Assembly (NCBI GenBank): GCA_963666515.2
Contig: OY762897.2
Location: 4,480,001 to 4,544,000 of the forward strand
Direction of reading: 5' to 3'
DNA length: 64,000 bases
From: Candidatus Binatia bacterium
Lineage (GTDB): Bacteria; Desulfobacterota; Binatia; UBA9968; JAJDTQ01
The translations under genes were made by a program, and so were the position numbers. Shown here piece by piece: positions 37,373 through 47,451 of this stretch. Under the pieces are notes generated by a model. It was given only the letters and a program-made list of their open reading frames with translations. It had not been told where the DNA came from and searched no databases. The first letter of the stretch is position 1, and each line of letters starts with the position of its first letter.

Positions 37373-38911
37373 CTACCAGCCGCGCCCCGCGCCGGGCGCG
37401 CCCGAGTGGCGTTGCAGCGCCTCGCGCCGGCCGGCGTCGCGCCACTCCGATTGCTCCGCGGCGCCTTTCTCCACCATCCGGAGCGCCCGCTCCTGCTCCC
37501 GGTGGAGCGCCACGATGGCGGCGGACGCCAGCGCCACGTGACGGTCCGGGTAGACCTGCTCCATGGCCATGAACCCCCGCTGCTCGTCCACGAACCCGGT
37601 GTAGACGTCCCCTTCGATGAACTGGGGGTGGCGCAGCATCCACTGGTGGAACGGGATGTTGGTCTTGACGCCCCGGACCTGGTACTCGCGCAGGGCGCGC
37701 TTGAGGCGCCGGATGGCCTCGGCGCGGTCCTCGCCCCAGACGATGAGCTTGGCGATCATGGGGTCGTAGTGGATGGGGATCTCGGCGCCCTCGTAGACGC
37801 CGCAGTCGTTGCGGATGCCGAACCCCTCGGGCAACCGCAGCCCCTCGATCTTTCCCGGACAGGGCATGAAGTCGGTCTCCGGGTCTTCGGCGTAGATGCG
37901 GCATTCGATGGCGTGCCCGGTGGGCCGGATCTGGCGCTGCGACCAGGACAGGGGCGTTCCCGAAGCGACGTGGATCTGCGCCTTCACCAGGTCGATGCCC
38001 ATGACCCGCTCGGTGATGGCGTGCTCCACCTGCAGGCGGGTGTTCATCTCCAGGAAGTAGTAGTTCTTGTGGCGGTCCACCAGGAACTCCATGGTGCCGA
38101 CGCCGGTGTAGCCGAGCGCCTTCGCCCCCTGCGCCGCGGTCTTGCCCATGGCCTTCTGCATGCGGAGGTCGATGGTCGGCGCGGGACATTCCTCGATGAT
38201 CTTCTGGTGGCGGCGCTGGATCGAGCATTCGCGGGTGAACAGGTGCAGCACCCGGCCGTAGATGTCGGCGAGGAGCTGGACCTCGATGTGGCGGCAGCGC
38301 TCCAGGTACTTCTCGACGTAGAGCCGGGAATCGCCGAAGGACGAGGCCGCCTCGGAGCGCGCCGCGCGGTAGGCGGAGCGTATTTCGTCGCTGGACTCCA
38401 CCCGCCGCAGCCCCTTGCCGCCTCCGCCGGCCACGGCCTTGAGGACGCAGGGGTAGCCGATGGCCTCGGCGGTCTCCATCACCTCCTCCTCGGAGCTGAG
38501 GATGTCGTCGGAGCCGGGGATCACCGGCAGCCCCGCCTTCTTCATCAGCGCCCGGGCGTGGACCTTGTCGCCCATCTGCTTGATGACTTCCGGCGACGGT
38601 CCGAGAAAGACGATGCCGGCCTCGTCGCAGGCGCGGGCGAACGCCGGGTTCTCGGCGAGGAACCCGTAGCCGGGGTGAATGGCGTCGGCCCGGCTCTTCC
38701 TGGCCGCGTCGATGACCCGGTCGATGCGGAGGTAGCTCTCCGTGGAGGGGGCTTCCCCCACCGGATAGGAGTAGTCGGCGTACTTGACGTGAAGAGCCTC
38801 GCGGTCGGCCTCGGAGTAGATGGCGACGCTCTGGATGTCCAGCTCGCGGCACGCGCGTATGATGCGGACGGCGATCTCGCCGCGGTTGGCCACCAGGATC
38901 CGTTTGAACAT
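37373..38911 (-). CDS. Biotin carboxylase subunit of an acyl-CoA carboxylase
   Basis: ANRGEIA, HPGYGFLAEN, GGGGKG, CSIQRRHQK and EMNTRLQVEH motifs. Confidence 0.93.
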   Translation of the reverse strand: MFKRILVANRGEIAVRIIRACRELDIQSVAIYSEADREALHVKYADYSYPVGEAPSTESYLRIDRVIDAARKSRADAIHPGYGFLAENPAFARACDEAGIVFLGPSPEVIKQMGDKVHARALMKKAGLPVIPGSDDILSSEEEVMETAEAIGYPCVLKAVAGGGGKGLRRVESSDEIRSAYRAARSEAASSFGDSRLYVEKYLERCRHIEVQLLADIYGRVLHLFTRECSIQRRHQKIIEECPAPTIDLRMQKAMGKTAAQGAKALGYTGVGTMEFLVDRHKNYYFLEMNTRLQVEHAITERVMGIDLVKAQIHVASGTPLSWSQRQIRPTGHAIECRIYAEDPETDFMPCPGKIEGLRLPEGFGIRNDCGVYEGAEIPIHYDPMIAKLIVWGEDRAEAIRRLKRALREYQVRGVKTNIPFHQWMLRHPQFIEGDVYTGFVDEQRGFMAMEQVYPDRHVALASAAIVALHREQERALRMVEKGAAEQSEWRDAGRREALQRHSGAPGAGRGW

Positions 38912-38939
38912 CTCAGGCGATCCCGTTATGCGCCCGCCC

Positions 38940-40490
<1,551 letters not shown>

Positions 40491-40735
40491 CAACGCCCCT
40501 TGCCTGCCGCCTTCCGGTGAGTTACGCCCGGCCTCATGGACGCCCCGGCGCCGGGGCTCGGCGCGCCGGTCCGGTGCACGGCTCCGTCTCTTGACCCGGG
40601 AAGGTCGCCGCGGTTATCAATGTCGGTGGGTTCCAGTGGTTCGTCACACAAGAACAACCCGTGGATCATAGGCCCCGCGGCGCAAAAATTCAAGGATTGC
40701 CCCGGATTCCCGTCCCTTCCTCGAACCGCCGAGCG

Positions 40736-41563
40736 ATGACAGGATCGTCCTCATACCCGTTCTTCTCGGACCCGCCGCCGAGGATCGCCGGACATCGCGG
40801 CGCCGCCGGCACCATGCCGGAGAACACCCTGGCGTCGTTCCGCCGGGCGCTGGAGGAAGGGGCGACCTTCGTCGAGATGGACGTCCACGCGACCCGCGAC
40901 GGCGAGATCGTCATCATCCACGACGACACCCTCCAGCGCACCACCGACGGCGCCGGCGCGTTGCGGGACACGGCCCTTGCGGACCTGAAGCCGCTGGACG
41001 CCGGCTACCGGTTCACGGCCGACGACGGCGCCACCTACCCGTTCCGGGGCCGGGGCATCCGGGTGCCGACCCTGCGCGAGTTCTTCGCCGAGTTTCCCGA
41101 GGCCAGGACGACGGTAGAGATCAAGGAGTTGCCGGCGCCGGCCGTCGGGACGCTGTTCGACCTCATCGAGGAGTTCGGCAACGCGGAGCAGGTGCTGGTG
41201 GCGGCCGAGCACGACGCCACCATGGCCGCGGCGCGCGAAGTCATCCGCGGGCGCGGCCTGTCCGTAGCCACGGGGTTCTCCACGGGTGAGATCCGCGCCT
41301 TCATGGCCGCGCTGACGGCAGGACGGGAGGCGCCGCGGGAGGCGCCCGGCCGGGCGCTCCAGATCCCGCTACGGTACCAGGGCGTGGAACTCGTCACCCC
41401 GGCGTCGGTGGCGGCCGCCCACGGCCTGGGCGTCGAGGTCCACGTCTGGACCGTCAACGAGACGGACGAGATGAAGGAACTGCTGGCGCTCGGCGTCGAC
41501 GGCATCATCACCGACTACCCCGCCCGCCTGCGGGACGTGGTCCGGCAATCCGAAGCGCGTTGA
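40736..41563 (+). CDS. Glycerophosphodiester phosphodiesterase
   Basis: GHRG, PENT, EMDVH, IHD, WTVN and DGIITDYP motifs. Confidence 0.92.
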   Translation: MTGSSSYPFFSDPPPRIAGHRGAAGTMPENTLASFRRALEEGATFVEMDVHATRDGEIVIIHDDTLQRTTDGAGALRDTALADLKPLDAGYRFTADDGATYPFRGRGIRVPTLREFFAEFPEARTTVEIKELPAPAVGTLFDLIEEFGNAEQVLVAAEHDATMAAAREVIRGRGLSVATGFSTGEIRAFMAALTAGREAPREAPGRALQIPLRYQGVELVTPASVAAAHGLGVEVHVWTVNETDEMKELLALGVDGIITDYPARLRDVVRQSEAR

Positions 41564-41626
41564 CGCGGACCTCGGCCTGCCATGCCAAGACGATCCTGCG
41601 CATCGCCCGCGTCTCCGTAGACCCGC

Positions 41627-42235
41627 ATGACGGACACGGCGCCAGACCCGCGCATGGAGCCGCTGCTCGACGCGCTGGAGGAAACCGACAAGGGGGTGGT
41701 CCGTCGCGCGGTGGAGGAGTTGGTGACCCTGGCCGCGGCCGAGCCAAGGGTTGCCGAGGCTCTCGCCCGGCGGCTGCAGGCCGCCCCGCGCTGGCCCGTC
41801 GCCTATGCCCTGGGGCAGATCACCCGCCCGTCCCCGGCCTGCCTGGAAGTGCTCGTCCGGGGCCTCGGCAGCGGCGACCAGGACGTGCGCTGGGCCACCC
41901 AGCTCCTGGTCACCGACCTCGGCAAGCGCTATGCGGAGGTCGGATCACGCCTGGAAGCGCTGCTGGGCGGCGGCTCGGCCACCCAAAGGAGAATGGCCGT
42001 CTACTGCCTGCGGGATATCGGCGCGGCCGGCGCCGGGTTTCCGGCCGCGTTGCTTGAGGCCCTGCGCGACCCCGAGCCGCTGGTGCGGGTGGCGGTGGCG
42101 ACCAGCCTCGCCAAGGCCCCGGCGGCGGGGGCGGACGCGCTGGATGCGCTCAGGAGCGCGGCCGCGGAAGATCCCGACGTCCGGGTGCGGAACGCCGCGG
42201 CCTTCGCCGTCAAGCGTCTCGCTGAGCCCACGTGA
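41627..42235 (+). CDS. HEAT/PBS-lyase repeat protein
   Basis: Repeated D..VR..A motifs in Ala/Leu-rich helices. Confidence 0.75.
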   Translation: MTDTAPDPRMEPLLDALEETDKGVVRRAVEELVTLAAAEPRVAEALARRLQAAPRWPVAYALGQITRPSPACLEVLVRGLGSGDQDVRWATQLLVTDLGKRYAEVGSRLEALLGGGSATQRRMAVYCLRDIGAAGAGFPAALLEALRDPEPLVRVAVATSLAKAPAAGADALDALRSAAAEDPDVRVRNAAAFAVKRLAEPT

Positions 42236-42255
42236 GCGGGTCCGCGCGAAAGAAT

Positions 42256-42284
42256 TTGACAAAGGGAACCGCCTCCCCTAAGAT
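42256..42284 (+). promoter_or_regulatory. Near-consensus sigma70 promoter
   Basis: TTGACA (42256-42261), 17 nt, TAAGAT (42279-42284). Confidence 0.75.
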
Positions 42285-42316
42285 GTCCGCCAGCAGAGAA
42301 AGGAGGTGGTCAAAAT

Positions 42317-42355
42317 ATGAGTGACATATGTAGCTGCGAGGTGACTGAGACCTAG
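42317..42355 (+). CDS. Candidate 12-aa micropeptide MSDICSCEVTET (or part of an sRNA)
   Basis: Strong SD AAAGGAGGT upstream of the ATG; own promoter and terminator. Confidence 0.5.
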   Translation: MSDICSCEVTET

Positions 42356-42409
42356 GCTCTCGAGCCTTTTTCGGAATTGAGGGTCTTGGTCAATTCCGAC
42401 AGTACACCG

Positions 42410-42448
42410 AGCCCTGGCTGGCCGACGCGTCAGCCAGGGCTTTTGTTT
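42410..42448 (+). terminator. Intrinsic terminator of the small transcription unit
   Basis: AGCCCTGGCTG...CAGCCAGGGCT followed by TTTGTTT. Confidence 0.8.
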
Positions 42449-43248
42449 GTTTGCGCCGTGTTTGTTTCCGCCCAGCCGATGAAGCTCGCCTGGCGTCCGG
42501 TGGCGCCGTCGCCGGCCGCGGCCTCCCGGCGGTAGGAAAAGAACTCCGCGGGATGGCACGCGGTGCAGGGGCCCGCCGCGGCGATCCGTTGCGCCGGCAC
42601 CCCCGCCGCGGCCAACAGCGCGGCGTTCAGCCGTCTCAGGTCGAGCCAGGTCCTGCCCTCCCGGCGCTCCAGGGCGGCTTCCGCCTTGTCGCCCCATGCC
42701 CCGATCAGCGGTTCCGAGACGTCGGGACCGATCTCGTAGCAGCAGCCTCCGATGGCCGGACCCACCGCGCACCACAGGTCCCGCGGCGCCGTGCCGTAGC
42801 GGTTCTCGATGTGCCGCACCGTTTTCGCGGCCACGCCGGCCAGGGTGCCGCGCCAGCCCGCGTGGATCACCGCGGCCAGCCTTCGTTCCGGGGTGCGCGC
42901 CCAGCAGAGGACCGGCACGCAGTCCGCGGTCAGGACGCCGAGGTAGACGCCGGGCGCGTCGGTCACCATGGCGTCGCCCTCGCCCGCGTCCTTGCACGGC
43001 CCGGCGACGTCGATGACGTGATCGCCGTGCCGTTGCCGCATGGTCACCAGCCGCGTGCCCGCCATGCCCGCGGCGCCCTTCACGGCGCAGTAGTTGTCCT
43101 TGACGTGCTGAGGGTCGTCGCCCACGTTGAAGGAGACGTTGAGGCCCGCGAACGCGCCCCGGCTGTGGCCGCCGGTTCGGCCCAGAAATCCGTGCCGCAG
43201 TCCGGGCTGCGCTTCCCACCCGGGAACGCGGTAAACCGTCAAGTCCAT
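42430..43248 (-). CDS. pgeF: Peptidoglycan editing factor PgeF/YfiH
   Basis: HGF.GR.GG.S, Q.HG, DAMVT, TADCVP, HAGWRG, GPAI...CYE and FFSYRR motifs. Confidence 0.92.
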   Translation of the reverse strand: MDLTVYRVPGWEAQPGLRHGFLGRTGGHSRGAFAGLNVSFNVGDDPQHVKDNYCAVKGAAGMAGTRLVTMRQRHGDHVIDVAGPCKDAGEGDAMVTDAPGVYLGVLTADCVPVLCWARTPERRLAAVIHAGWRGTLAGVAAKTVRHIENRYGTAPRDLWCAVGPAIGGCCYEIGPDVSEPLIGAWGDKAEAALERREGRTWLDLRRLNAALLAAAGVPAQRIAAAGPCTACHPAEFFSYRREAAAGDGATGRQASFIGWAETNTAQTNKSPG

Positions 43249-43251
43249 CAC

Positions 43252-43304
43252 AACCGTTCGTCCTGAGCGTAGCGGAGTGTCAGCGGAGCGAAGTCGAAGG
43301 ACGC
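43252..43304 (+). repeat. REP-like dispersed repeat, copy 1
   Basis: AACCGTTCGTCCTGAGCGT...CAGCGGAGCGAAGTCGAAGGACGC; nearly identical to 44782..44834. Confidence 0.8.
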
Positions 43305-43323
43305 AAGCTCACGGGACACCACA

Positions 43324-44070
43324 CTAGAACCGCGACAGCAGGCTGCCGAAGCCGTCGAGCCGGTCCGACAGCCCGTTCTGGCGCAACGCGTACCAGTAGA
43401 TGGCCGTGTTGATGGCGATGACCGGCTTGCCGAGCCGGCTTTCCGCTTCGCCCGCCAGCCGCGCCATGACCAGGTTCGTGCCCACCTGCACCACCGCGTC
43501 CACGTCGCCGCCGTCCACCTCCTCGATGGCCGCCTCCAGGGTGTCCGCCTGCACGTGGGCGATCAGCACCGGGCTCTCGCACTTGAGGCCCTTGAGGCGC
43601 GCCACCTCGTAGCCGCAGTCGGTGAAGAACCGCACCACCTGGGCGTCGCCCACGGGCATGTACGGCGTGATCACCCCGATGCGCCGGATGCCGCCGTACG
43701 CCTCCAGCGCCGCCTCGCAGGCGTAGGAGCCCATGGCGACCCGCACCCCCGCGCGCCGCTCCACCGCCTCCAGAAGCCGCCGGCTGCCCTCGGCGCCGTC
43801 CCAGAAGGTCTCCGAGGACATGCCCATGATCAGGTAGTCGGGCCGGCAGGTCATCACGCGGTCGATGGCGTTGTCCACCTCCGCGCGGATGTTCCGCATC
43901 AACTGCTCGAAGTCCGCGTCGTCGTGGATGGGGTCGTCGGGAATCCAGATGCGCGCGAAGTGGTTGGTCACGCCGTCCGGCCTCATGTCGTCGAACTCGG
44001 GCTGCACCGACGTGTTGGTGGAGGGGGCGATGACCGCGAACTTGCGCCGCCAGCCCAGGGCGTCAACCAT
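43324..44070 (-). CDS. Maleate isomerase / arylmalonate decarboxylase (Asp/Glu racemase) family protein
   Basis: PSTNT..QPE, ITPY, GTNL and LGKPV.AIN motifs. Confidence 0.8.
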   Translation of the reverse strand: MVDALGWRRKFAVIAPSTNTSVQPEFDDMRPDGVTNHFARIWIPDDPIHDDADFEQLMRNIRAEVDNAIDRVMTCRPDYLIMGMSSETFWDGAEGSRRLLEAVERRAGVRVAMGSYACEAALEAYGGIRRIGVITPYMPVGDAQVVRFFTDCGYEVARLKGLKCESPVLIAHVQADTLEAAIEEVDGGDVDAVVQVGTNLVMARLAGEAESRLGKPVIAINTAIYWYALRQNGLSDRLDGFGSLLSRF

Positions 44071-44294
44071 TCATCGTCCTCCGGCGGCTTCTCACGCGGG
44101 CGTTCCGCGCCGAGGTGGTTGGACTCGCGTTCATGGCCCAAGGTATAACACCAACGTTCTGCGGTTTACTATTGTCTGCGCCGGCGCTCTTGCCATGGCG
44201 CATCATTGCAGGCGCTGACGATTCCCGGTCTCCGACCCCCGCTTCTCCCGGGAGAGGGCAGGGGCGAGGGCCTCCCGCGGGTGGAAAGGACGAC

Positions 44295-44783
44295 ATGGCG
44301 ATACCGGAACGCTACAACACGGGCTACAACGTCGGCGTGGGCGGAGCGGTGGTGCGGGACGGACGGCTGCTGTTCGTGCGGCGCGCGTCGCGCCGAGGGC
44401 GCGGCAACTGGCAGGTGCCCGGCGGCTTCATCGAGCCGGACGAGACCATCGAGGCGGCCGTGGTCCGGGAAGTGGCCGAGGAAGCCGGCGTGGAGGCGGA
44501 GGTGGAGGGGGTGCTGGGCGTGCGCAGCCGCTACGATGCCGAGTCCGGCAACAGCCTCTACGTGGTGCTGCTGCTCCGGGGCCTCACCGCGGAGCCCACG
44601 CCCGACGGGAGGGAGGTGGACCGGGCGGTCTACCTTTCGCTGGAGGAGATCCGCGCGCTGGACCCGCTGCCGCAGACCAACTGGGAGGTCGCGCAAAGCG
44701 CCTTGGCGCCCGTGCCGCGGCTGCTGACGCCCAAGACGGTGTCGAACCAGCGGGGCCAGGTCTTCAACCTCTTCATCGGATAA
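44295..44783 (+). CDS. NUDIX hydrolase
   Basis: Nudix box PGGFIEPDETIEAAVVREVAEEAG; SD AAAGGA. Confidence 0.9.
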   Translation: MAIPERYNTGYNVGVGGAVVRDGRLLFVRRASRRGRGNWQVPGGFIEPDETIEAAVVREVAEEAGVEAEVEGVLGVRSRYDAESGNSLYVVLLLRGLTAEPTPDGREVDRAVYLSLEEIRALDPLPQTNWEVAQSALAPVPRLLTPKTVSNQRGQVFNLFIG

Positions 44784-44834
44784 CCGTTCGCCCTGAGCGT
44801 GGCTCCGCGCCAGCGGAGCGAAGTCGAAGGGCGC
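44782..44834 (+). repeat. REP-like dispersed repeat, copy 2
   Basis: AACCGTTCGCCCTGAGCGT...CAGCGGAGCGAAGTCGAAGGGCGC. Confidence 0.8.
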
Positions 44835-44911
44835 CGTCCCGCGGAGCCGCATCGTGTCGTCCGCGGCGAAATGTTTGCAAGTCCCCACCCCCCATGTTAC
44901 ACGAAAACCCC

Positions 44912-45937
44912 ATGAACAACGTGGAACCGAGGTACGCGGATCTCGCGGAAAAGTCGCTCGCCGGGGAGCTTCTGTCCCCCGCGGAAATGAAGTCGGTCAT
45001 CCACGGCGCCGACGAGAGGCTGCCGGAATTGCTCGAGGCCGCGTTCCGGGTCCGCCACCACTATTACGGCAAGAAGGTGCAGATCCACGTGCTCATGAAC
45101 GCCAAGAGCGGGCTCTGCCCCGAGGACTGCGGCTATTGCTCGCAGTCGTCGGTATCCGGCGCCGAGATCGACAAGTACCCGTTCCTTGCCAAGGAGGAGC
45201 TGGTGGACGCCGCCATGAGGGCCAGGGAGGCGGGCGCCATGCGCTTCTGCCTGGTCAACAGCGGCCGAGGCCCCACGCTCAAGGAAACCGAGAAGATGGC
45301 CGAGGCCGTGGCCGAGATCAAGAGCAAGGTGCCCATCAACATCTGCGCCTGCATGGGGCTGCTCACCGAGTCCAAGGCGCGCATCCTCAAGGACGCCGGC
45401 GTCGAGCGCATCAACCACAACCTGAACACCAGCAGCCGCTATCACCCGGAGGTCGTCTCCACCCACACCTACGACGACCGGGTGGCGACCCTGGAGAGCG
45501 TCAAGGCCGCGGGCCTGTCCACCTGCTGCGGCGGCATCATCGGCCTGGGCGAGCAGGACGACGACGTCATGGACCTGGCGGTGTCGCTGCGGGAGCTGGA
45601 CGTGGACTCCATCCCGGTCAACTTCCTGCACGCCATCCCCGGGACCCCCATGGAGGGGCGTTCGAACCTGACGCCGCAGTACTGCCTCAAGGTCCTGTGC
45701 CTGTTCCGCTTCGTCAACCCCAGCAAGGAGATCCGCGTGGCCGGCGGCCGGGAGGTCAACCTGCGCTCATTGCAGCCGCTGAGCCTCTACCCGGCCAACT
45801 CCATCTTCGTCAACGGCTACCTGACCACGTCCGGCCAGGCCGCCTCCGACGCCCACCGGATGATCGAGGACCTGGGCTTCGAGATCGAGACCGCAGAGCA
45901 GGAAGAGCTGCCGGAGCGGCAGCAGAGCATCGCTTAG
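44912..45937 (+). CDS. bioB: Biotin synthase
   Basis: Radical SAM motif [11 protein letters not shown]; NHNLNT, SIPVNFL and RVAGGRE motifs. Confidence 0.95.
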
Positions 45938-45972
45938 CCGCCTGCCGAAGGTCACTAAAGGGAGAACGTTCC

Positions 45973-46179
45973 GTGGCACGAATTACCGTCGAAGATTGCC
46001 TCAACGAAGTTACCAACCGCTTCAAGCTGGTGATGCTCGGCTCCCAGCGCACCAAGCAGCTCCTCAAGGGCGCCAAGCCGCTCGTAGACGCCGACAACCG
46101 CGAGATCGTCGTAGCCCTGCGCGAGATCGCCGCGGGGAAGGTGCGGGAGGCACAGCCCGAGGTGCCCGACACCGAGTGA
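45973..46179 (+). CDS. rpoZ: RNA polymerase omega subunit
   Basis: GTG start after SD GGGAG; [10 protein letters not shown]...NRF.LV...VALREIAAG. Confidence 0.95.
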
Positions 46180-46233
46180 TCTTGCCGGCCCAGTGTCGCG
46201 CTTTAGCCGGTTCCCGCGCGCGGGAGACGAGCC

Positions 46234-47451
46234 GTGGCGGTCACCTACTCCGATCGCGAACTCGAAGCCATGCTGGCGGACATGGAGTCCGACTTGGTGG
46301 AGTGCAAGGAGTCGTTGAGAGGAGACAGTCTCGGCCGCATTCGTGAAGCGGTTTGCGCTTTCGCCAACGACCTTCCCGACCACCAACGCGCCGGAGTAGC
46401 GTTCGTAGGGGTGGCCGACAACGGTAGCCCCGTCGGTCTCCCGATCTCGGATGAACTGCTACGCCAACTCGCCGACATCAAGACCGACGGCAACATCGTG
46501 CCGCCGCCAACCCTGACAGTCGAGAAGCGTGTGCTCCGCGGGCAGTCGGTGGCCGTGGTGACCGTCCAGCCTGCCGACGCGCCGCCGGTGCGCTATCGGG
46601 GGCGTATCTGGATTCGCGTCGGATCTCGCCGGGATGTCGCCAGCGCACAGGATGAACGAATACTCAACGAGAAGCGCCGCTATCGCGACCCCCACTACGA
46701 CGCCCGTCCGGTACGTGACGCCACGCTCGCCGACTTGAAGGTCGCGTATTTCGAGCACGAGTACCTTCCGGCAGCGGTCGACGCCGAGGAACTCGCCGCC
46801 AATGATCGGACCACGGAGGAACGCCTGGCTGCCGCGAAGATGATCGTGGCTGTCGAAGATCCCGTGCCGACCGTGGCCGGCATCCTGGTGCTGGGCAAAC
46901 GCCCGCAGGACTTTATTCCCGGCGCCTACGCGCAATTCCTACGAGTCGCGGGGAACGAATGGGGCGACGAGGTCGTTGACGAAGCTCGTAGCGAAGGACC
47001 GATCGGAGACGTCGTCCGGCGCGTGGACGACAAGATCATCGCCCACAACCGCACCGCCGTGGATTTTCTCTCCGGCCCGGTGGAAACGCGCACCTCGACC
47101 TATCCTCTGGGGGCTCTGCAACAACTGGTTCGCAACGCGGTCATGCACCGGACCTACGAGGGCACGAACGCACCCGTGCGCGTCTACTGGTTCGACGACC
47201 GCATCGAGATCATCAGTCCCGGCGGCCCGTATGGCGCGGTCAACGCCGAGAACTTCGGGCAGCCCGGCGCGGTGGACTATCGCAACCCCATCCTTGCGGA
47301 AGCGATGAGGGTTACCGGTCTGGTGCAACGGTACGGGTTCGGCATACCGGCCGCGCGACGGGATTTGCGGAACAACGGGCAAGAGGGACCGGAGTTTCGA
47401 GTGGAACCGACCGCGGTCTTTTGCACGGTCAGGGCCAGGAAGGGACCATGA
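46234..47451 (+). CDS. AlbA_2 (Schlafen-like) domain plus HATPase_c_4 protein
   Basis: ES..VECKE, VCAFAN, GVADNG at the N-terminus; NAVMHR.Y, DRIEI.SPG and RNP.LA at the C-terminus. Confidence 0.8.
   Translation: MAVTYSDRELEAMLADMESDLVECKESLRGDSLGRIREAVCAFANDLPDHQRAGVAFVGVADNGSPVGLPISDELLRQLADIKTDGNIVPPPTLTVEKRVLRGQSVAVVTVQPADAPPVRYRGRIWIRVGSRRDVASAQDERILNEKRRYRDPHYDARPVRDATLADLKVAYFEHEYLPAAVDAEELAANDRTTEERLAAAKMIVAVEDPVPTVAGILVLGKRPQDFIPGAYAQFLRVAGNEWGDEVVDEARSEGPIGDVVRRVDDKIIAHNRTAVDFLSGPVETRTSTYPLGALQQLVRNAVMHRTYEGTNAPVRVYWFDDRIEIISPGGPYGAVNAENFGQPGAVDYRNPILAEAMRVTGLVQRYGFGIPAARRDLRNNGQEGPEFRVEPTAVFCTVRARKGP

Follow-up and report, generated by a model that had tools for sequence, protein, structure and literature searches.

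A divergent, non-actinobacterial homolog of the small RNA Ms_IGR-5 with a conserved miniature open reading frame in a Candidatus Binatia genome

The window analysed here, 64,000 nt of the Candidatus Binatia bacterium assembly GCA_963666515.2 (contig OY762897.2, positions 4,480,001 to 4,544,000, forward strand), contains a small transcription unit at 42256–42452 (+) that is a real, conserved, free-standing gene. Judged from sequence and structure models, the element belongs with the Ms_IGR-5 family (Rfam RF02471), as a divergent homolog from outside the actinobacteria. On balance we lean towards the explanation that it specifies a translated, structured small RNA of ~160 nt, itself a miniature mRNA, which would function in ribosome engagement or RNA refolding and not through its peptide. 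It is likely that the RNA and the act of translation, not the peptide, are the selected feature. The original prediction for this locus had offered a 12-residue CxC micropeptide and a ribosome-engaging RNA as possible products; the micropeptide reading is mostly wrong, and the reading that the unit engages ribosomes is probably right. The features of the unit are as follows.

42256–42261, + strand: −35 box TTGACA, read directly in the sequence
42279–42284, + strand: −10 box TAAGAT, with a 17-nt spacer to the −35 box
42292–42452, + strand: putative transcript of ~160 nt starting at A42292, the start being taken from the start of the Rfam alignment at 42292
42297–42311, + strand: SD1, an extended Shine-Dalgarno (SD) sequence AGAAAGGAGGTGGTC / AGAAAGGAGGUGGUC, complementary to the 3′ tail of 16S rRNA
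42317–42355, + strand: 12-codon open reading frame (ORF) from ATG to TAG, read in the sequence, peptide MSDICSCEVTET
42338–42343, + strand: SD2, in-frame GAGGUG (codons Glu-Val), 9 nt before the stop codon and conserved across loci
42340–42347, + strand: P1 5′ strand GGUGACUG, pairing with 42400–42408 in the minimum-energy fold
42349–42363, + strand: P2 5′ strand, holding the last sense codon and the stop TAG (42353–42355), pairing with 42377–42391
42354–42367, + strand: small hairpin AGGCT-CTCG-AGCCT, alternative to P2
42371–42399, + strand: P3, 10-bp stem UCGGAAUUGA/UCAAUUCCGA (42371–42380 with 42390–42399), a pseudoknot arm
42377–42391, + strand: P2 3′ strand, pairing with 42349–42363
42400–42408, + strand: P1 3′ strand CAGU(A)CACC, anti-SD-like, pairing with 42340–42347
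42409–42452, + strand: intrinsic terminator read in the sequence, a stem at 42409–42442 (14 pairs, 9 G-C) and a U-run to ~42452

The RF02471 model (Ms_IGR-5, "Actinobacteria sRNA") aligned to 42292–42448 (+) over its full length (model positions 1–184 of 184) with 36.6 bits, at an E-value of 2.8e-6 in a permissive scan of 41500–43300 (1.8 kb) and of 1.8e-6 in the whole genome, where it was the only match at E ≤ 1. This score is below the RF02471 gathering score of 45, and so are the scores of all 27 other genomes of the genus; same-order relatives score over the threshold. Intermediates above it were loci of the sister family (46.7–60.1 bits) and of Ignavibacteriales (47.5–48.6 bits). The element and RF02471 also have a common architecture of an extended SD, a mini-ORF, GAGGUG followed by three codons and a stop, P1, P2, AAUYCC and a terminal hairpin. 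We link the locus to RF02471 despite its sub-threshold score because the alignment is significant and full-length, the intermediates pass the threshold and the architecture is shared. Our own covariance model, R1, which was built from all clades with a structure voted from single-sequence folds, matched 100 of 100 own, binatial and actinobacterial loci at 31–112 bits, many of these loci having been used to build it. At E ≤ 10, the 1.8 kb scan placed no other Rfam family on the unit, nor did any overlap the elements in eight loci from other phyla. A match to a described Rfam family had been named as what would refute the original prediction; in substance the unit does match one, below threshold but significantly and over the full length, and is not an orphan. 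The family is thus already in Rfam as an actinobacterial small RNA, and the copy in the window is a divergent variant outside the naming phylum. One RF02471 match in the sample of the window's own phylum (L183, E 0.002) lay inside an ABC-ATPase-like coding region (..GPSGSGKST..) and was judged false, as it lies in coding sequence and near the E-value limit of the model.

Members of the family have been recorded in several actinobacteria. RF02471 was validated by RNA-seq in Streptomyces lividans (PMC8079986), Ms_IGR-5 and 6C were the only two small-RNA transcription units matching Rfam in S. avermitilis (PMC8780764), and ribosome-profiling reads were reported on MS_IGR-5 homologs of Mycobacterium abscessus and M. 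smegmatis (PMC4974804). In M. smegmatis, IGR-5 lies between MSMEG_5794 and MSMEG_5795, is capped with nicotinamide adenine dinucleotide (NAD) and starts at +1A; the same preprint terms it "validated but yet uncharacterized" and omits it from the NAD captureSeq expression plot because it had no annotation among the RNA-seq transcripts (bioRxiv 10.1101/2021.12.14.472595). A cold-stress study lists it as ncMSMEG15794c (PMC10454040), and a term search in Shell et al. 2015 (PMC4633059) returned nothing relevant. In the main texts searched, no function, conserved ORF geometry or occurrence outside Actinobacteria was found for the family.

Like the element, Ms_IGR-5 has an A at its 5′ start, is free-standing and is usually single-copy. 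The two differ in their peptides (L-I-D-L-W-T-C-E-V-A-A-R in mycobacteria, MSDICSCEVTET in the element) and in their neighbours, which are pabC-like and nitrobindin-like genes for the mycobacterial Ms_IGR-5 and pgeF and a HEAT-repeat gene for the element. The element is moreover non-actinobacterial, records with its type being labelled Candidatus Binatia, its P3 is extended to a 10-bp stem, and its terminator has a U-tract. The 6C RNA (RF01066) resembles Ms_IGR-5 as a conserved, well-expressed actinobacterial small RNA, but has no sequence or model match to the element and is without an ORF or SD. A further resemblance lies in C-rich unpaired motifs, which could pair with G-rich SD regions.

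The ORF of the element is very probably translated. Every homolog contained an ORF, of 11–16 codons and up to ~20 in the Acidobacteriota-side sample. In 60 loci that were found by covariance model and not by motif pattern, two loci from unpublished genomes being left out, GAGGTG was followed by exactly three codons and a stop in 60/60. The 47 unique sequences among them ended in TAG (37), TGA (7) or TAA (3) and started with ATG (18), GTG (12), TTG (10), CTG (6) or ATA (1). The same rule was seen in 26 further loci from three other phyla, 25 by script and the last one (L201) by eye, with GAGGTG adjoining P1. We regard the ORF as a translated frame because the codon position of the stop never changes although the stop itself may be any of the three, and because the starts are interchangeable. 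In some actinobacterial, Ignavibacteriales- or Zixibacteria-labelled members (L163, L165–L167, L170–L173, L175, L176, L056 and L142), CTG, ATT or ATA was the sole in-frame start suitably spaced from the SD, suggesting that the very long SD drives initiation at non-canonical codons there.

The encoded peptide drifts within this fixed frame. Glu-Val (GAG GUG) are the only invariant residues across the family, the residue before them differs across phyla (C, R, S, G, L, P or E), and in 52 mycobacterial-type ORFs every position of codons 2–4 is variable, the second position most of all. GAA or GTN, which would be synonymous with GAG GUG, did not occur in any model-detected set, and the motif is therefore constrained as nucleotides. 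These observations bear on the alternative that the 12-residue CxC peptide is itself the product, as a metal- or redox-binding peptide or a precursor of the kind processed into ribosomally synthesized and post-translationally modified peptides (RiPPs), with the RNA structure merely stabilising the mRNA. The conserved ORF and its very strong translation signals accord with such a peptide, and what alone keeps the reading alive is the retention of two Cys codons within this order (CxC or CxxC) with synonymous TGT/TGC changes, which leaves room for a clade-specific peptide role. The Cys pair is conserved only in this order, however: the same-class relatives L182 and L184 have one Cys, and the sole invariant residues coincide with an invariant SD-like nucleotide motif and a strand of P1. 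Nor are any neighbours conserved across phyla, and no conserved maturation or modification enzymes were found near the element, whose own neighbours are pgeF, HEAT-repeat, GDPD and Amdase genes and whose neighbours elsewhere are others. We consider this alternative distinctly unlikely. The part of the original prediction that posited a translated 12-amino-acid ORF very probably stands, whereas a functional Cys peptide is not supported by so poorly conserved a peptide; a RiPP-like precursor modified in trans finds neither conserved maturation genes nearby nor a constant core peptide across the family.

The end of this frame is built into helices that covary. In the minimum-energy fold of the locus, P1, P2 and the terminator form and AAUUCCGA (42392–42399) is left unpaired. 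P1 pairs GGUGRCUG(NN), comprising the Glu-Val codons and the next one to two, with CAG(N1-3)(C)ACC directly upstream of the terminator, and its duplex was predicted in 151/151 unique elements. The inner pairs of P1 show compensatory changes (CUG-AG with CU-CAG, -CG with CG-, -GG with CC- and -UC with GG/GA-), and in divergent members whole strands have changed together (GGUGGUGAC with GUCACCACC, GGUGGCG with CGCCACC, and GGUGACCGG with CCGGUUCACC). P2 pairs the stretch from the last sense codon through the stop into the bases beyond it with the segment directly 5′ of AAUYCC; cognate P2 duplexes averaged −17.6 kcal/mol versus −11.3 kcal/mol for non-cognate ones (117 unique pairs), and 9 of the 10 modelled P2 pairs change on both sides. 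The small hairpin that had been proposed at the stop codon is present in the sequence, but in the minimum-energy fold and in relatives it is replaced by P2. The conserved AAUYCC separates P2 from P1 on the 3′ side and is predicted to be unpaired with a mean probability of 0.80. At the locus in the window, AAUUCC (42392–42397) lies on the 3′ arm of P3, and the 5′ arm of P3 lies inside the P2 loop; P3 and P2 together have the topology of an H-type pseudoknot, in which P3 competes with P2 at the edges. Across the family, AAUYCC pairs with a G-rich patch of the P2 loop in many members. This pairing is strongest in the genus of the window, where it forms the perfect 10-bp stem (−9.2 kcal/mol at the own locus vs −3.5 kcal/mol for shuffles, p = 0.0); the stem noted in the original prediction is thus present, and is better described as the local form of the pseudoknot arm P3.

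Covariation was quantified in an alignment of 100 loci, 95 of them distinct, made on model R1 (A2). Standard pairs occupied 76.3% of the P1 and P2 cells (64.5% when shuffled, 30–50% in slid controls), the covariation score was 0.340 (0.167 when shuffled, with 0/500 shuffles reaching the observed value, and 0.05–0.11 in slid controls), and 15/20 pairs had changed on both sides (11.1 when shuffled, 7–10 in slid controls), all of these being counts that lean towards the structure to which A2 was fitted. The possibility that the RNA is purely non-coding, with an incidental ORF and with its C-rich 3′ segment or SD-like motifs pairing with target mRNAs, would suit the listing of the family in Rfam as a small RNA, the structured character of the RNA and the conserved AAUYCC that is predicted to be unpaired. 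It would not account for a stop at a fixed codon position in all 60 loci with all three stop codons in use and interchangeable starts, nor for the ribosome footprints reported on homologs (PMC4974804), and we regard it as very unlikely. As a side observation, the P2 loop of a Mycobacterium metagenome-assembled genome (L099) is 116 nt long with an apparent tandem duplication of a ~35 nt segment (GCCGCTGAACGTCAGTGAAGCGGTCGAT.. twice), and Streptosporangiaceae-type members have 130–160 nt inserted at this position, so that large insertions are tolerated in the P2 loop.

SD1 is the longest match to the 16S rRNA tail in this genome. The 3′ end of the 16S rRNA gene of the genome reads GGATCACCTCCTTT and then CTA, and the duplex of SD1 with this tail comprises 13–15 nt including one G-U pair, at −21.8 kcal/mol. 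In the 4.67 Mb genome, the 13-mer AAAGGAGGTG[AG]T[CT] has two occurrences: one is SD1, the other the 16S 3′ end read as its reverse complement. SD1 is located ~5 nt from the putative 5′ end and is near-invariant across all homologs, and the earlier suggestion that its AGGAGG acts as a ribosome-engaging element fits these data. An alternative account would make SD1 a decoy that sequesters the 30S subunit or the anti-SD tail, the mini-ORF only letting ribosomes run off and the 3′ domain having no role. The complementarity of SD1, the sole such site in the genome, its near-invariance across phyla and the strong promoter all agree with a decoy. A decoy leaves unexplained, however, why GAGGUG, three codons and the stop keep an invariant geometry, why P1 and P2 covary and why AAUYCC is conserved, and we think it unlikely to be the answer. 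Separately, the spacer directly 3′ of the 16S end (G000:C1:593541-593606, outside the window) reads CTAAGGAGATCC and can fold back on the anti-SD tail GGATCACCTCCTT, which may be a processing-stem feature of the pre-rRNA.

No SD in the genome is longer than SD1, a further SD follows in frame exactly three codons ahead of the stop, and the stop itself is enclosed by covarying helices. This very unusual combination of conserved translation signals points to a ribosome-coupled RNA mechanism that is testable in carriers such as M. smegmatis and Streptomyces. In the translated small RNA that we favour, SD1 at the 5′ end would load 30S subunits very efficiently, and a ribosome would have to melt P1, P2 and P3 in order to complete the 12 codons. 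Once the stop codon occupies the A site, GAGGUG would end 6 nt upstream of the P-site codon, at the distance found in an initiation complex; the anti-SD could therefore re-pair with GAGGUG and hold the terminating ribosome at the stop. As long as the ribosome is held there, neither of the 3′ strands, AAUYCC and the anti-SD-like CAG.CACC, would be paired. Two states of the RNA would thus alternate, a closed one that is not translated and an open one that is bound by the ribosome. In the open state it could titrate, sense or park ribosomes, or make the C-rich 3′ segment accessible to a partner or to an RNase. This specific parked-ribosome switch is a tentative proposal that we hold to be doubtful.

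Several observations weigh against the favoured reading. Besides the sub-threshold score of the family match, the leaning of the A2 counts and the Cys codons kept within the order, SD1 is not especially open in thermodynamic folding (mean unpaired probability 0.35), and its pairing with the 3′ strand (−10.5 kcal/mol) is no better than that of shuffles (−11.0 kcal/mol); the idea of a feedback in which the freed P1 3′ strand sequesters SD1 was dropped for the latter reason. P3 reached p ≤ 0.05 in only 41/118 elements and p ≤ 0.2 in 69/118. RNAalifold on a plain MAFFT alignment (A1) recovered only 6 P1 pairs, because A1 sets the 3′ motif of different clades one column apart. Since GAG-GUG also encodes the invariant Glu-Val, an effect of the nascent Glu-Val peptide cannot be fully separated from an effect at the RNA level; we favour RNA-level constraint over a nascent Glu-Val arrest peptide because of the lack of synonymous variation. 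Finally, the mechanistic steps, from the holding of the terminating ribosome to the switch and a possible partner of the 3′ strand, are inferred from geometry only.

Known systems provide partial parallels. Dual-function small RNAs with a small ORF include SgrS/SgrT, RNAIII/hld, SR1/SR1P and rnTrpL/peTrpL. Like them, the element is a small structured transcript with a conserved RNA structure and a translated ORF; their peptides are conserved and functional and their base-pairing regions are separate, whereas the peptide of the element is weakly constrained and the end of its ORF is built into conserved helices. As in leader peptides and attenuators, translation of a short ORF would remodel downstream RNA structure, and as in the programmed-frameshift sites of prfB and dnaX, an internal SD-like element stands at a fixed distance from a decisive codon. 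Unlike attenuators, prfB and dnaX, the element is without a downstream gene, a slippery site or conserved terminator/antiterminator logic. If generalised, Ms_IGR-5-type RNAs might constitute a widespread housekeeping class of "ribosome-engaging" mini-mRNAs, represented among the genomes sampled here in six or more phylum-level groups, in which a super-SD captures the 30S subunit, the ribosome opens the pseudoknot and a second in-frame SD parks it at the stop; such RNAs could report or buffer free ribosomes, park idle ones, or expose an anti-SD-like strand only during translation. We offer this as speculation that is rather improbable; if true, it would describe a new kind of ribosome-coupled riboregulator.

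The transcription signals of the locus are strong, as originally described. The promoter matches 10/12 consensus positions, and the region 38000–47000 contained 2 promoter-like sites versus 0.5 ± 0.7 in shuffles. A TTGNNN-N16-18-TANNNT site was present upstream of the element in 18/18 unique loci of the own-genus type, with −10 boxes TAGGAT, TAAGAT, TATGAT or TAAAAT in own-genus loci, and in 115/139 other unique loci. Homologs have 5′ ends of the form ACAC. or AGCAG. The putative 161-nt transcript folds at −67.3 kcal/mol (z = −4.34), and 0/200 shuffles folded as well. Promoter, ORF, stems and terminator were all found at 42256–42452 (+), as expected of a self-contained unit, and its sequence is AT-richer than its surroundings, as had been noticed, with a GC content of 0.49 at 42250–42399 and 0.68–0.79 on both flanks. 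An RF02471 search found one copy in the 4.67 Mb genome. ARAGORN detected 0 tRNA or tmRNA genes at 42000–42700, and a likeness to tRNA or tmRNA was dropped. The genes adjacent to the element and the next ones outward, the latter with no evident link to the RNA, are as follows.

40661–41563, + strand: GDPD (glycerophosphodiester phosphodiesterase) gene, next outward on the left
41627–42235, + strand: HEAT-repeat gene, left neighbour of the element
42430–43251, − strand: Cu-oxidase_4/pgeF gene, right neighbour, convergent
43324–44070, − strand: Amdase (arylmalonate decarboxylase-family) gene, next outward on the right

The terminator on the + strand is antisense to the last codons of pgeF, which confirms the predicted antisense overlap of the two 3′ ends, and the convergent orientation of pgeF upholds the earlier view that the unit is not the leader of a downstream gene. 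That the unit is a CsrA decoy, or that it attenuates a neighbouring gene or supplies its leader peptide, might be suspected from the superficially attenuator-like combination of a short ORF, alternative stems and a terminator, and from the presence of GGA motifs. An attenuator was ruled out by the convergent downstream gene and the non-conserved synteny: the terminator is strong, neighbours differ between phyla, and the element is inverted within the same pgeF/HEAT gap between the genus and its sister family. As for CsrA, which the original prediction had proposed as a target of the decoy, no CsrA gene (PF02599) was found in the own genome, which is 98% complete, and the domain was detected in control genomes; the element also has only two SD-like motifs, compared with the multiple GGA hairpin loops of the CsrB/RsmY type. 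Both variants are extremely unlikely.

The element was traced through related genomes and through samples of more distant groups. A search of 61 related genomes with the RF02471 model gave a match at E ≤ 0.01 in 54, including 27/27 genomes of the own genus (the window's genome, G000, aside), 5/5 of a second family and 21/28 of a third; the 9 relatives over the gathering score were all from the third (sister) family. An exact-pattern scan with one genome per species matched at least 120 records. Among the matches listed, the many labels within Actinomycetota were Mycobacterium, Mycolicibacterium, Nocardia, Saccharopolyspora, Streptosporangiaceae, Actinomadura, Streptomyces, Nakamurella, Propionibacteriales and Frankiales, and the non-actinobacterial labels were Candidatus Binatia (the type of the window), Ignavibacteriales, Zixibacteria, Blastocatellia, Nitrospiria and Leptospira weilii; a few labels among the matches listed look like binning or labelling errors. 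Counts per group, which refer to samples of genomes so that "not found" is not the same as absent, were as follows.

Actinomycetota sample, RF02471: 50/151 (46/147 without four unpublished genomes)
Sample of the window's own phylum, RF02471: 4/151, including the window's own genome and one match judged false
Ignavibacteria-side phylum sample (Ignavibacteriales locus), R1: 55/151
Acidobacteriota-side phylum sample (Blastocatellia locus), R1: 13/121
Nitrospirota-side phylum sample (Nitrospiria locus), R1: 2/121
Spirochaetota-side phylum sample (Leptospira locus), R1: 12/121

The element thus occurs in sampled genomes of at least five phylum-level groups besides its own, and it is nearly always single-copy. 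Annotation pipelines miss this conserved gene outside actinobacteria, since its members there are excluded by the threshold that Rfam sets.

In Binatia-type genomes the element is located between convergent pgeF and HEAT-repeat genes (gap 42236–42429 in the window). Its orientation within this gap is flipped, following HEAT in the own genus and pgeF in the sister family (L002–L012, L030), which suggests an in-place inversion of the small gene between the two. In mycobacteria the neighbours are an Aminotran_4 gene (Rv0812/MSMEG_5795 type) and a THAP4 heme-binding-domain gene; elsewhere they are unrelated, and none is common to different phyla. Neighbours not being shared between phyla, the element is a free-standing gene and not a leader.

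A second, usually weaker model match was seen in two genomes of the relatives set (G006, G026), one of the Actinomycetota sample (G086) and one of the Ignavibacteria-side sample (G426); these may be second or partial copies. A metagenome-assembled genome labelled Gammaproteobacteria (L064) carried a mycobacterial-type element, LVDLWTCEVAAS, together with mycobacterial neighbour clusters (Aminotran_4-like, GCV_T-like), and is probably a mis-binned or mislabelled contig. Mis-binning or mislabelling likewise probably explains the Binatia-type elements in records labelled Syntrophobacter(ales), Deltaproteobacteria, Proteobacteria and Acidiferrales.

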